Shown one piece after another: positions 3,795-64,000 of a stretch of 64,000 nt of DNA. The stretch is from Octopus vulgaris. Lineage: Eukaryota. The number at the start of each line of letters is the position of its first letter. The stretch's first letter is position 1. Made by a program: the position numbers and the translations under genes. The notes under the pieces were generated by a model. That model was not told the origin of the DNA. It was given only the letters and a program-made list of their open reading frames with translations, and searched no databases. Where the stretch lies: assembly GCA_951406725.2 (NCBI GenBank), contig OX597818.1, positions 69,440,001 to 69,504,000 on the forward strand, in the 5' to 3' direction.

Positions 3795-4192
3795 ACAGTT
3801 CTATATTTAAGAGACAAGGAATTATGTACATTATTTACATTTGATGGATATTTGTCCTCATCTTGATTGTTGTTAACACAACGTTTTGGCTGATATAACC
3901 TCCAGCCTTCATCAGGTGTCTTGGGGAAATTTCGAACATGGGTTCTCATTCCTAAGGTAATTTTCAATGAATAATAATGATAACAACAACGACAACAATA
4001 ATAATGATGATGTTGATGATGATGATGATGATGATGATGATGATGATGATGATGATGATGACGATGATGACGATGATAATGATGATGATGATGATAATAA
4101 TAATAATAATAATAATAATAATAATAATAATAATAATAATAAGGAATGAGAACCCAGGTTCGAAATTTCCCCAAGACATCTGATGAAGGCTG
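3795..4192. mobile_element. Penelope-derived inverted (palindromic) element, family A, with HHR
   Basis: 3903-3954 is the reverse complement of 4140-4192 around an (AAT)n/(GAT)n spacer; the same family recurs at 63675-63895. Confidence 0.7.
3875..3920 (-). ncRNA. Type I minimal hammerhead ribozyme motif (G12->A, probably inactive copy)
   Basis: Minus strand reads GACAC-CUGAUGA-a-GGCUG[10 nt]CAGCC-aAAA-CG-UU-GUGUU; helix I GACAC/GUGUU, helix II 5 bp, palindromic AACGUU helix III. Confidence 0.7.
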
Positions 4193-4970
4193 AGTTGGAA
4201 TGTAGATTTCAAAGAAACTCCAAAAATCTATCATGTGGTACCATTTCCAGAATAAATGGAGTCCACATGCCTAGACCCCAATTCCAATATGATGCTAGGG
4301 TGAACTTCTTCATGATGTCTTTCAGCAGGGCAAGCAGAACTTTGATTTTGCCCCCTGTGGTTGGAAACCAATCACCGCCATGCCCAGGTCTAACATGCTG
4401 GGGATGGTTTTCAGCATAGTCATTCATTTTGTCTGCAATATATTGGAACATTTCATCTATCAAAAACTCATGAAAGATTTCCAATGGTGAACTTCCATAT
4501 TCAAGGTCTGCCTTTGTGCCAGGCGAACCAGTATACCCATGCCATCAGATGAAATTGTCTCTCACTCACCACACGACATTCTGTTGTCCAGGGCCTTTCA
4601 CTGCTGCCCACCTGTACCTTTAATTCACCGGAATATCATCATCACTATTTGAATCCTCTGATTCTGAACCAGGAAAATACTCATTCTCTGATTCATCGTC
4701 TGAACTGTAAGAAACAACTGGTGAGGTGGTGGGGGTTGGTGTAGCTTGGCTTCAGGACTGTAAATTCGATGAAACAGGATGTGATGACAAAGTTGACAGA
4801 GCTGGAGTGCCAGGACCAGCCTATTAAATTGTAAATATTTACATAAATCATCTAATTAGCCTATCAGTTGGCAGGTGGTCCAGTACTAACTCAGGTGGCA
4901 TATAATTACGTCAACCGATTTAAAGCAGGTACATTGCATGCGTAAATTTACATCAATCGTTTTAAATGGG
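4193..4970 (-). mobile_element. piggyBac transposon left-end fragment with decayed transposase N-terminus
   Basis: TTAA (4971-4974) next to a CCCATTT terminus on the minus strand; acidic N-terminus (SSDDESENEY..SESEDSNSDDD); ORF 4209-4484 has piggyBac motifs (W.PTT..IK.LL, YW, TP.....DRF..L, LH). Confidence 0.8.
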
Positions 4971-5870
4971 TTAAACGATGATGACAGTGATGATGATGAT
5001 GATGATGAGTGCAATGTGATTCGTTAGATATTTAGCTGCTATTTTCAGCATGTCGAATAACCATCTATAAAATCTCTGTTTGACAGAATTCTCAGTCAAT
5101 GAACAATTCCGCAACTTTTACTTCTCCCTCCATTTGTCCAAGATTCTATTTCCTATCTTCTCTCTTACTCTCTTTCTTTCTCCCTGAAAATATTGGCTTT
5201 GTGAGATCAGCAGTTTAGCTCAGTTAGGATGGCTGATGGAAAGGAAGGTCTCTGTTACTCACACACACACACGTATATGTACACATATATATATATAAAT
5301 ATATACCTACATATATATATATATATATATATATATATATATATATATATATATATATATATATATATATATATATAGAGAGAGAGAGAGGGGGGACGAT
5401 GGGGGGAGATACATATCAATACATATCAATACATGCATCTACATAGCGATACATTAGCAACATTGTTATTAGATTTTAGGAATTTCTTCTTAATGGAAAT
5501 GAATTGGAAAAAATTACCTATTGAATTTTTTAAGTGATAATATAATTTTGTTTCCTCAAAGTACATTAGTAATATAGTGTAAATATATACATATATATAT
5601 ACATGTATATATACATACATATGTATATATATAAATATATATGTAAGTATGTATGTGTGTGTATGTATATACATATATATGCATGTGAATATATATGCGT
5701 GAGTGTGATCATGTGTGTGCAAGTTCGTGCATGTATGTATGAATGTGTGTATGTATATATATGTGTGTATATATATATATATGTATATACACATATAGCG
5801 TTATATACATATCCAAACATATGTACAAGCCTGTATGTGTGTATACACGCAGACACACACATGCATGCAC

Positions 5871-6260
5871 ACAAGAAAAAGATGGTATCAAAAAGTTCCT
5901 GGTCTACGTAGGTAGCATGCCAATAGATGGCAGTACACGGTTGCATGCACAGTGAGGGCTGGTAGTGAGGCTCTGGGCTGAGGGAGATTGTAGTGTTTAC
6001 TTTGCAAGTTGTGATCACGTGTGTCTGCTGTAGTCTGTGACTTTTGTCATCGGTAGGAAGTTAGAACAAAGAGCCAACATAAAAGTTTTGTGGTGGAAAG
6101 TTGGAAAGTCTGCTTCAGAGACATTGAGCATGCTTCAGCAAGCTTATGGTGATGAGGCAATGGGGCATACGTAATGTTTTGAGTGACAAAGGCACTTCAA
6201 ATTTGGAAGAATGTCCCTGACATGGAATCCCCAAGAAAATGTGGAGAAAATCCATTTGAG
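5871..6260 (+). mobile_element. mariner transposon 5' fragment (HTH domain, degraded)
   Basis: TIR-like GGTATCAAAAAGTTCCTGG; translation LEQRANIK...GKSASETLSMLQQAYGDEAMG..CFE...HFKFGR is the mariner N-terminal HTH. Confidence 0.8.
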
Positions 6261-61099: not shown

Positions 61100-61490
61100 C
61101 CATCATCATCATCATCATCATCATCATCATTTAGCATCCTCTTTCGATGCTGGCATGGGTTGGACAGTTTGACTGAAAACTGGTAAGCTGGGGAGCGGCA
61201 CCAATCTGAATTCGCATGGTTTCTATGGCTGGATACCATTTTCAGTGCCAACCACTCCAAGAATGTAGTAAATGGCTTTTATGTGTCACTGGCATGGGTG
61301 CCGGTTATGTGACCACAGCATCGGCCATGACTATCATCTCATTTGGCTTCACAGGTCTTCTAAAGCACGACATATCACCAAAGGCCTTGGTCTCTTGTCA
61401 TGGCCTCCCATGAGGCCCAACGTCCGAAGACCATGCTTCATCCCCTCATCCCATGTCTTTCTGAATCTACCTCTTCCACAGATTCCTTAT
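61100..61490 (-). mobile_element. RTE 3' end
   Basis: (CAT)n tail, GCTGGCATGGGTTGGAC, and minus-strand GRGRFRKTWDEGMKHGL-like ORF end. Confidence 0.75.
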
Positions 61491-63199
61491 ATATATAAGG
61501 TTGCCTCATCTGATGACATTTTTATTATTATTCAAGGCAGTTGATTATGATTTGAGGGATATTTCACTGCTATTTCTCACAGGCTGAAGGCTTAATAAAA
61601 GATTCCTTCACTTGCCACATATGTTTGTCTGGTTGTCTCTGTTGTATTTCTACATTTGTGTTGCAAGTGAAATCAGGTTCACTTCGTATACAGGGAAATA
61701 TTTGTGATGTAGATATATAAATATATATGTGTGTGTGTGTGTATGTGTGTGTATGTATATGTATGTATATATGACAGAGCAAAATATGTGATGTAAAATA
61801 ATAAACATTATGTGTAATGTAGAGTTATATACGTGAGGTATTGAAATATATTTCATTGTTATCAAACCCCAGCTCAGCCCTTCTAGCTAAGATTTGTGAT
61901 CAAGAGCATTCCAGGCATGGCTGTCCCGCCAACTTTTCAATCAGTTTCCAATTTAACCTAATTCCACAGTAAATGCTAATAGAACTATTCTTTCTATTCT
62001 GTATGCTCTAAATTTCCTGTTGATTCTATTGTTTCTGCCTAATTGAGCAATCAACTTCTATTTTACTGCTATAATTTGTCAGGTAGAATTTGTTTTTGTG
62101 ACGTCATTTTAACATTACCTCCATCTGTTTCTAATTTAATCATGTTTGGGGTATTATATGGCATTTCTCTGCATCGCATTGTTGGCATTATTTATGTAGT
62201 GTGTGCTGTGCTTGATGACTATTCAGTTGATGTGATCTCCGATTGGTCAAAGCAATTTTTATCTCCTCCTGTGACACACACATATCTAGACAAAGCAGTG
62301 ATATTCCTCTTTCCCTCATTTCTAAAATTGGATTTATGATTGAAGACCAATTTCAAAATCTCTCTTCATTCACATAAATATGAAACGTATATGTTTCCAT
62401 GTTAACGGCTTGACATTTTATCTTTTATATTCCTTTATTCTTTTACTGGCTTCAGTTATTTCCCTTTTGCCATTTTAGAGCCCTCCCTCCTATGATTTTA
62501 CTCAATTGTATTAATACCAGGCTTTAAATCAATGAACATAAACACAGACAGGGATCCAGATACAGACATATTTTTATGTATGTGACAACAAGGAACAATG
62601 GTGATATGTTCCCTCATAACACAAAACTCGATAGGAAAACATTTGTGCAGAACACAAGGATCCTGAATAGAATTCCCCACAAAACAAGGCAAAGCACTTC
62701 ACATATATCATGGCACAGTGGTAAATTAAACAAAGATTTAGCAAACAGTAAGCGAAATAAAATAATGCACACTCGACTGATGATGATGTATAATAGTTGA
62801 ATACTGAAATGCTGGCATTAGTGCCGACATCAATGCCATTAGCTTTGCTTGCCATAAACAGGCAGCAACGACACTTCTCCTCGAAGATGAAACAATGAAA
62901 GCCCAGAATACTGTCAGAGCTGTCAACACCATCATACCATCAAAACGTTGGTTATATCAGCAGCAATACTAATATTGATAGCTGACCCCCCTCCCCCCTC
63001 TCTCTCTCTCTCATTCCCCATTTATTTATATACCATTATCATTACCATTCACCATCCACATTTTCATATTTGCATGTTGCCAGACAAGATTCTTTGAGGT
63101 AGATTTTCCATGGTTGGGTACTTTTCTTGTCACCAATCTTTAATTTGTTTCCAAGCAAGCTAATATCTCCCCACAATCCAGACATGTTTTCATCAATGA

Positions 63200-64000
63200 C
63201 ACTGAGGTAACAGCATCACCTGTTCCACTGATTGAGGTCGTTTGTGAGTTTATGCCTGATAGGATGCTGGCAAGTAATGGCGCTTCCAGAACAACACTTT
63301 CAGGAATATCACTTCTAATCAGTGACTTGCAAGAGAGCAGACTCTGTGCAGCAACATAGTGATTCCTTGTCTATAAAATGTTTTTGTTTTTTGTTTTTGT
63401 GATATCAAGATCCTTTAAACTGTAACAGATTATTCCATGATCCATCTTGTCAAAGGCTTTAGCAAAATCGACACATATACAATCAGTATCCATTTCCTTC
63501 AGGAAATTATGAAGTATTATGTTATGGTGCCGTAGTAGTTGCATCCAACATGTTCATCCTGTTTGATAAATTCATACTGTGTATCCTTGAAGCTGCTGTT
63601 TTCCTCTTCATATTTGATTTGTCTTTTTCAAACAATGTGTTCAGCAGTTTTTGATGTGTTAGATGTGATCACAAGATTATTTACATTATTTACATTTGGC
63701 GGATATTTGTCCTCATCTTGTTTGTTGTTAACACAACATTTAAGTTGATATATCCTCCAGCCTTCATCAGGTGTCTTGCTGAAGGCTGGAGGGTCTATCA
63801 ACCAAAACGTCATGTTAACAACAAACAAGTTGAGGACAAATATCCACCAAATGTAAATAATGTACATAATTCCTCATCTCTTAAATATAGATCTGTGTGA
63901 TCAAAACGTGTTTGTAATTTATAGCTTCAGATCTGCCACCTTCCTTGTGTATAGATGTGAACATTGCTTCTTCCAGTATTTCTGGGAATATGCCAGATAC
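63200..64000 (-). mobile_element. CR1-type LINE RT fragment, interrupted at 63675-63895
   Basis: Minus-strand NYKHVLITS..SK, D..CVDFAKAFDKMDHG, SDIPESVVL.PLL (degenerate NYRPISLTS, DF.KAFD.V.H, SGVPQGSVLGPLL). Confidence 0.85.
63675..63895. mobile_element. Palindromic HHR element, family A (copy 2), with ~11-bp TSD
   Basis: 63676-63766 and 63780-63870 are inverted copies, with a ~25-bp tail on the right arm; TGTGATCACAA (63664-63674) / TGTGATCAAAA (63896-63906). Confidence 0.85.

Follow-up and report, generated by a model that had tools for sequence, protein, structure and literature searches.

A stretch of 64,000 nucleotides from the Octopus vulgaris genome (GenBank GCA_951406725.2, contig OX597818.1, positions 69,440,001 to 69,504,000), called the window here, contains six short palindromic elements and a 2.6-kb Penelope-like element (PLE). 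Five of the short elements are very probably the 3' ends of three protein-coding PLE families (A, B and C), and the sixth (family D) a piece of a 522-bp hammerhead-bearing tandem unit that lacks an open reading frame (ORF) and is likely copied in trans by a PLE. A broader proposal, on which the evidence leaves us evenly divided, is that PLE machinery mobilizes non-coding RNAs in two ways. Retrozymes, the old family D and a still-spreading 644-bp family, would be inserted with the full PLE signature, and a Poseidon-type PLE with a captured tRNA-derived RNA polymerase III (Pol III) promoter would make its own hammerhead short interspersed nuclear element (SINE).

An initial annotation of the window had read the short elements as either extreme truncations or a non-autonomous, ribozyme-processed class of inverted elements. 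Truncation was found for A, B and C, and a non-autonomous nature applies only to D, whose unit is tandem rather than inverted.

Layout of the Elements in the Window

Self-BLAST (E 1e-18 to 1e-71) confirmed the inverted head-to-head arms in all six short elements, as first described, and in the 2.6-kb element. By the same comparison, the 3795 and 63675 elements form a single family (A) and the 43672 and 58933 elements another (B); the window holds two copies each of A and B and one each of C and D.

3796..4192, family A insertion, 3' end of a putative Poseidon-type PLE: left arm 3796-3969, sense on the minus strand, with tail; right arm 4142-4192
63676..63895, family A fold-back: left arm 63676-63778 without tail; right arm 63777-63895 with tail
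43672..44046, family B fold-back, 3' end of a putative Neptune-type PLE: left arm from (TA)n, no tail; right arm with a tail of about 57 nt
58933..59080, very short family B fold-back: both arms end 3' of the hammerhead core
21711..22093, family C fold-back, end of the 3' untranslated region (UTR) of a putative Neptune-type PLE: left arm 21711-21895 with a tail of about 70 nt; right arm 21897-22093 running into (TA)n
47510..47985, family D fold-back, piece of the 522-bp ORF-less tandem unit: left arm ~47510-47765 without tail; right arm 47769-~47985 with a tail of about 135 nt
49995..52570, minus strand, Neptune-like PLE with a C-terminal endonuclease: young, 5'-truncated, one frameshift
51220-51906, reverse transcriptase (RT) of the 2.6-kb PLE
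50328-51257, linker and GIY-YIG of the 2.6-kb PLE
51869-52570, inverted arm of the 2.6-kb PLE: 147-nt tail, (TA)n on both sides
50121 (minus strand) and 52296 (plus strand), hammerheads of the 2.6-kb PLE with a CCGAAGA core

The boundaries first given were mostly accurate, except that the 47510 element ends at about 47985 rather than at 47872. The 3796 insertion, described initially as two back-to-back arms, does have inverted arms, but about 170 bp of expanded (AAT/GAT)n lies between them and the right arm is broken off within the hammerhead. Directly after this cut arm, a piggyBac-like transposase fragment (Pfam DDE_Tnp_1_7, E 4e-6) was found at 4209-4544 on the minus strand.

The arms of the 2.6-kb PLE are 555 bp long and 99.6% identical (self-BLAST), and locus L310 holds a full copy of 778 aa, 98.6% identical, with YRDD at 356 and YIGST at 674. 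The inverted layout shared with the short elements was correctly recognized at first. Since the RT comes first and GIY-YIG last, however, the element is not of the Naiad type to which it had been assigned. Its family is young, terminates in (TA)n and shows the fold-back geometry at every size; among its relatives, several retain an open frame of 778-899 aa. Several young families of PLEs with a C-terminal endonuclease were also seen (L291-L305; open frames of 585-899 aa, long-helix-II hammerheads, tails of about 145 nt), and L299 is a full PLE tandem with a period of 3625 bp.

Insertion Marks

Loci were collected with one arm per element as seed, taking the 30 best-scoring for each, and with further seeds from inner parts and from the RT of the long element. 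Each DNA search scored 40 candidates, so all family counts are samples.

Two fixed 3' ends were found per family, about 36 nt apart in A, 57 in B, 70 in C, 135 in D and 150 in the window PLE, which bears out the extra tail reported on one arm. One arm ends at each 3' site in 9 of 13 head-to-head pairs of B, 12 of 15 of C, 8 of 16 of D and 10 of 19 of the long PLE family, the remainder being mostly broken alignments. The arms overlap by 0-12 nt in most clean pairs, and the 5' ends are scattered, with a spread from -75 to -925 in family C. The 5' ends seemed to cluster at -178 in B and at -220 in D, but these clusters were dropped as alignment breaks against a divergent reference.

Target-site duplications (TSDs) of at least 10 nt, allowing one mismatch, flank 22 of 31 two-arm insertions of family A, compared with 2.6% of 930 mismatched pairs. 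They are 11-14 nt long, two of the 22 being microsatellite matches, and the 63676 copy has one of 11 bp with one mismatch. Beyond the 3' end, (TA)n was present in 23 of 43 cases in B and 31 of 44 in C. Most of the elements had been said to abut (TA)n, which is true of B, C and the long PLE family but not of A, where a TSD is found instead. It detracts from these counts that the arms of one insertion are not independent.

By analogy with in vitro work on Poseidon, GIY-YIG would likely make a nick in each strand of an AT-rich or (TA)n target, the two lying about a dozen bases from each other. The RT would start on each nicked strand at a different one of two neighboring sites close to the 3' terminus of the RNA, giving one tailed and one tailless arm, and both cDNAs would stop early at independent points and join head to head via an overlap of a few bases. 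With both stops within 50-300 nt, the product would have the appearance of a tiny palindrome. The hammerhead would be a passenger of the pseudo-long terminal repeat (pLTR), dead in most copies.

Link of Families A, B and C to PLE Coding Sequence

Families A, B and C are ordinary 5'-truncated inverted PLE insertions and not an independent inverted class. Their junctions vary freely and each family is linked to PLE coding sequence, and therefore they are truncation products; the initial annotation had itself named this combination as contrary to its independent miniature class. Some copies of A extend upstream into the GIY-YIG C-terminus; of 30 loci for which the GIY-YIG region was the seed, 27 have the head (the tRNA-like segment treated below) and/or the hammerhead body downstream on the same strand, with RT motifs farther upstream in L239. 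In B, the endonuclease C-terminus with an Asn/Ser-rich insert is reached in L039, L043 and L059, and a weak RT-thumb match was found in L309. In C, an AT-rich UTR of about 1.15 kb lies between the 3' end and an endonuclease ORF in five loci (L245 and L253 among them), where the ORF has a Cys-rich linker; L262 extends to the RT end.

Coding motifs were identified by eye and by tblastn, while Pfam gave only a sub-threshold RVT_1 match. To judge from these motifs, A is likely a Poseidon-type PLE and B and C are likely Neptune-type PLEs. The clade labels, including Neptune-type for the window PLE, are taken from endonuclease motifs and from the zinc-finger linker described in PMC8557442. It weakens the linkage that A, B and C yielded broken copies only, none with a complete full-length ORF, and that the RT link of B is weak. 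Fifteen coding PLE loci of other families showed no match to A, B, C or D beyond (TA)n and chance neighbors.

tRNA-Derived Segment in the 3' UTR of Family A

About 25 nt past the family A stop codon lies a 77-nt segment, the head, followed by (AAT)n, the hammerhead and the tail; neither window copy extends to it. In each of four copies, the alignment of the head to a genomic tRNA gene (L195) scores higher than those of all 1000 shuffles, and among 76 heads an A-box was found in 55 and a B-box in 52. The tRNA-derived A/B-box head would likely start a short Pol III transcript, from which many small copies could arise.

Arms that reach the head stop within about 12 nt of it in 14 of 16 cases not seeded on the head and in 22 of 27 seeded on it, compared with about 7% expected if loss went on at the rate seen within the head; here too, arms of one insertion are not independent. 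This pile of stops suggests a built-in, SINE-like transcript. The stops that lack a fold-back, up to 17 of 43 head starts by the automatic class (about three of them misfiled on inspection), lie within 2-8 nt upstream of the tRNA-like G1, the stretch in which Pol III would be expected to begin.

The pile of 5' ends might instead result from snap-back self-priming or RT stalling at a native 5-bp palindrome, TGCCC-AC-GGGCA, which occupies the pile-up spot in the long form and is the center of the fold-backs that make up 22 of the 43 head starts. Self-priming at palindromes has been proposed in PMC3846280, and the reads of three RNA runs from a species with the same label showed no molecule-start pile at the head. 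Nevertheless, a 5-bp stem is a weak block, and the stops without a fold-back speak against this explanation, which we regard as possible but on the less probable side.

The Pol III reading in turn has to face the same RNA reads, which also showed no strand bias at the head and a symmetric depth; their step up and switch of strand there only mirrors the genomic copies. Rfam gave no match to a tRNA (RF00005) or a hammerhead in L018, and the absence of T4 runs in A was rejected as evidence for Pol III, since it lacks specificity for the head-to-tail unit.

Family D and a 644-bp Family as Candidate Retrozymes

Family D has a period of 522 bp. Copies longer than one unit re-enter the same D unit, 16 of 29 distal ends continue into the next one, and the longest ATG ORF has a median of 30 aa. 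No linked PLE coding sequence was found by tblastn with PLE proteins from the same genome in 55 loci, some of them duplicates. An RT near D in L120 proved to be a separate, unlinked insertion, and what looked like the remnant of an ORF at the D end ('...IQKLEPIHN') was dropped, being the hammerhead in translation.

The D hammerhead has a type I topology with a UUGACGA core and a bulged A; helix III is a 10-nt palindrome, helix I has 6 bp and the cleavage site is UU. Both helices plus the cores are complete in 13 of 28 motif-spanning copies. In predicted circular folds, four natural D units gave z values of -5.2, -5.4, -3.0 and -1.4 against dinucleotide shuffles (16 each), while five PLE 3' ends used as controls ranged from +2.3 to -1.1.

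There are 16 head-to-head D pairs in 30 loci, with scattered junctions, and (TA)n lies beyond 10 of 13 terminal distal ends and 7 of 13 proximal ones. Since these insertion marks are of the PLE type, D likely borrows Penelope machinery, and because of the (TA)n targets and the long tail it is likely mobilized by a Neptune-type PLE. It would probably cycle as a retrozyme, through a tandem transcript, ribozyme cutting and a predicted circular RNA.

In the random genome sample described below, an ORF-less tandem hammerhead repeat of 616-644 bp was found at L361:1-2672 (G000:C4:~141999200-142002672). Tandem copies of its 644-bp unit are 99.5% identical; the repeat is also inverted head to head and ends in (TA)n, with a longest ORF of 43 aa and a predicted circular fold of z -5.4. 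The best 40 of 1498 candidates are 99-100% identical and lie on at least 18 contigs, and eight loci have an adjacent inverted arm, at differing points. No significant BLAST similarity between D and this family was detected; the hammerhead architecture is common to both. The 644-bp family is likely an active retrozyme, and D is likely a new retrozyme family with PLE-type ends.

Several results argue the other way. The D ribozyme is non-canonical, with U3 facing G8, an extra A and cleavage after UU, and no compensatory change in its helix pairs occurs among the 28 motif-spanning copies. Unit lengths of 522 and 644 bp exceed the 150-450 bp described for retrozymes, which is a descriptive range. 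In addition, eight of nine predicted frog retrozymes were uncleaved according to bioRxiv 10.64898/2026.07.22.740005. Finally, an autonomous D partner was not found among the best 40 of 131-226 candidates scored per search, and a long D parent may exist unsampled.

With such a parent, D would be only the pLTR of an autonomous PLE, tandemized locally by recombination and not a retrozyme moved in trans. PLEs do form partial tandems, the sampling covered 55 loci, the D arrays are short (1-2 units), and local amplification of PLE termini is proposed in the same preprint. This origin is nonetheless unlikely, given that every long-enough copy re-enters its own unit, tandems stand at many dispersed loci, the predicted circular fold is far better than shuffles, unlike that of PLE 3' ends, and the 644-bp family presents near-identical tandem copies with inverted arms on many contigs.

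Fold-Backs as Mobile Units or MITEs

That the palindromic unit itself is mobile, forming several families of miniature fold-back retroelements independent of autonomous ones, is largely refuted and very improbable. In its favor, fold-backs of 150-500 bp abound, at 13-19 head-to-head pairs per 30 loci, and D really has no ORF. However, a re-mobilized palindrome would give recurrent junctions, and no junction pair is shared between copies, bar assembly or segmental duplicates; A, B and C run on into PLE ORFs, and the long PLE family keeps this geometry whatever its size. The inversion comes from the way in which PLE machinery inserts whatever template it copies and is not a property of a miniature class. 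An origin as miniature inverted-repeat transposable elements (MITEs) of DNA transposons, which the short ORF-less form, inverted ends and TA-rich flanks would suggest, retains practically no probability because of the ORF links, and the arms are moreover asymmetric, with a tail on one side, free in length and homologous to PLE 3' UTRs, with 11-14-bp TSDs in A and hammerhead motifs in family copies. On this point the initial annotation was right: ORF links, asymmetric arms and TSDs identify RT products of the PLE type, not MITEs.

Hammerhead Motifs in the Window and in the Families

The type I hammerheads attributed to the arms are found intact in other copies of the families, but in the window copies the motifs are decayed, and the hammerhead claim applies to the families alone. 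None of the 12 arms of the six short elements passes the strict hammerhead descriptor. The whole motif is spanned by six of them, of which two, the left arms at ~43700s and ~47640s, keep both core boxes. The left-arm hammerhead of the 3796 copy carries GAAA>AAAA, and those of the 63676 copy are cut or decayed. The C copy has a long helix II and two core changes. Both arms of the 43672 copy span the motif, the left with its cores kept and helix I broken, the right with GAAA>AAAA, while 58933-59080 has no hammerhead core. The left arm of the D copy carries the variant hammerhead at ~47655-47715 on the minus strand.

Among the arms sampled per family, both cores and the NUH cleavage triplet occur in 54 of 92 for A, 14 of 37 for B, 41 of 48 for C and 16 of 19 for the long PLE family, whose core is CCGAAGA. 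Copies diverge from the majority sequence of their family by a median of 6% in A, 13% in B, 7% in C, 11% in D and 3% in the long PLE family. A narrower hammerhead descriptor used initially was blind to bulged-A and long-helix-II forms, and Rfam scans of the window and of the family A loci returned no hammerhead and no tRNA, only microsatellite noise.

Four motifs in the window satisfy the strict descriptor (11656, 37776, 50121, 52296). Stand-alone hammerheads had been reported at 11605, 28122 and 37771; the first and the last are good motifs, but the second is decayed.

11600..11665, minus strand, stand-alone type I hammerhead by the strict descriptor
37770..37835, plus strand, stand-alone type I hammerhead by the strict descriptor; another dispersed family
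28105..28160, minus strand, decayed hammerhead-like motif; helix I unpaired

A 1-kb fold-back at L316:1167-2216, with a hammerhead in each arm, is related to the family of the 37771 motif.

Abundance and Genome Context

The genome is microsatellite-rich and comprises 2.8 Gb in 227 contigs. A random sample of 80 grid-spaced 10-kb regions (of 140 planned), all on contigs C1-C8 and covering 800 kb, contained eight insertions of A, one of B, one of the long PLE family and none of C or D. With seven A-D and long-PLE insertions in its 64 kb compared with 10 in the 800 kb, the window is about ninefold richer, and it has 13 generic fold-backs compared with 4.6 per 64 kb in the sample. Strict hammerheads numbered 39 in the 800 kb and 0-4 in five shuffles, consistent with the four per 64 kb of the window. 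Extrapolated from these 800 kb of C1-C8, family A occurs about once per 100 kb and strict motifs number about 1e5 genome-wide. The very large genome-wide count anticipated at first is borne out; of the window itself, described as holding about ten motifs and possibly typical, four motifs are strict, and the strict density is typical but the family density is not.

A very abundant element of about 210 bp (L354:700-910 and 10 other random-sample sites) carries a compact type I hammerhead, often with a CCGACGA core. Both of its ends are fixed, the 3' one at (TA)n, and it has no inverted arm. It provides 11 of the 39 strict motifs in the 800 kb and does not occur in the window. Two diverged fold-backs in the window were missing from the first list, at 26014-26340, with TA runs on either side and possibly a further PLE stub, and at 56102-56521. 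At 13494-14051, a common SINE-like repeat forms an inverted pair. The accessible text of the octopus repeat annotation (PMC13282606) lists active Penelope families and contains no mention of hammerheads or retrozymes.

Significance and Comparison with Known Systems

Five of the six elements are known PLE debris. Such stubs are expected and matter mainly for annotation, as they mimic MITEs and run to tens of thousands of copies; the PLE-type ends of D and the tRNA-headed Poseidon UTR are the parts worth attention. Which elements mobilize animal retrozymes can be tested by means of the insertion signature; the link has so far been drawn from co-occurrence and sequence trees. If true, retrozymes with the full PLE signature would be direct genomic evidence that PLEs move animal retrozymes. 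The coexistence of a young, near-identical retrozyme-like family with young PLEs having intact ORFs of 778-899 aa makes a trans-mobilization assay feasible.

The following comparisons are with the accessible parts of the sources cited. An inverted 5'-truncated copy plus tail is the PLE layout in PMC8557442 and PMC3846280. Nicking and priming on both strands and two RT start sites bounding the tail are described in PMC11167929, where hammerhead cleavage was dispensable for insertion in vitro. PLEs have been named strong candidates for moving retrozymes (PMC7229834), and the link was argued from co-occurrence and trees in bioRxiv 10.64898/2026.07.22.740005, whose main text, in the part accessible, is without 'tail' or 'target site'. 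A literature search outside Repbase and most subscription journals found no work using insertion geometry to identify a retrozyme mobilizer and none on cephalopod retrozymes.

The window families resemble endonuclease-bearing PLEs (Penelope/Poseidon, Neptune) in the head-to-head inverted copy, the tail on one arm, the two 3' start sites, a TSD of about 10 bp or a (TA)n target, the palindromic helix III and the link to an RT-GIY-YIG ORF. They differ in the tails of the (TA)n families, 57-150 nt compared with 30-40, in the long helix II of family C and the window PLE, and in the tRNA-derived 3' UTR segment of family A. They also resemble the PLE-linked hammerheads of Schistosoma, where opposite-strand pairs of minimal hammerheads 100-700 bp apart, tied to truncated PLEs, were reported in 2014 (PMC4209133). 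The Naiad clade (PMC8557442) has (TA)n targeting, inverted arms and a tail in common with the window PLE, but its endonuclease is N-terminal and it has no canonical hammerhead; in the window PLE the endonuclease is C-terminal and a hammerhead is present.

Like animal non-LTR retrozymes (PMC7229834; bioRxiv 10.64898/2026.07.22.740005), family D and the 644-bp family are ORF-less, low in GC and arranged head to tail, with one predicted type I hammerhead per unit, a highly self-paired predicted circle and coexisting PLEs. The 522/644-bp unit and the variant core with its UU site set them apart, as do the short dispersed arrays, the inverted arms on the 5' side, the pair of fixed 3' ends and the insertion into (TA)n, which go unmentioned in those retrozyme descriptions. 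Finally, as in family A, a type I hammerhead preceded by tRNA-type A/B boxes within a unit of about 300 nt is found in the schistosome SINE-like elements SM-alpha and Sj-alpha (PMC6765202), which have a Pol III promoter; unlike them, the family A unit is the 3' UTR of a coding, putatively Poseidon-type PLE and occurs as inverted pairs, not as a tandem satellite.

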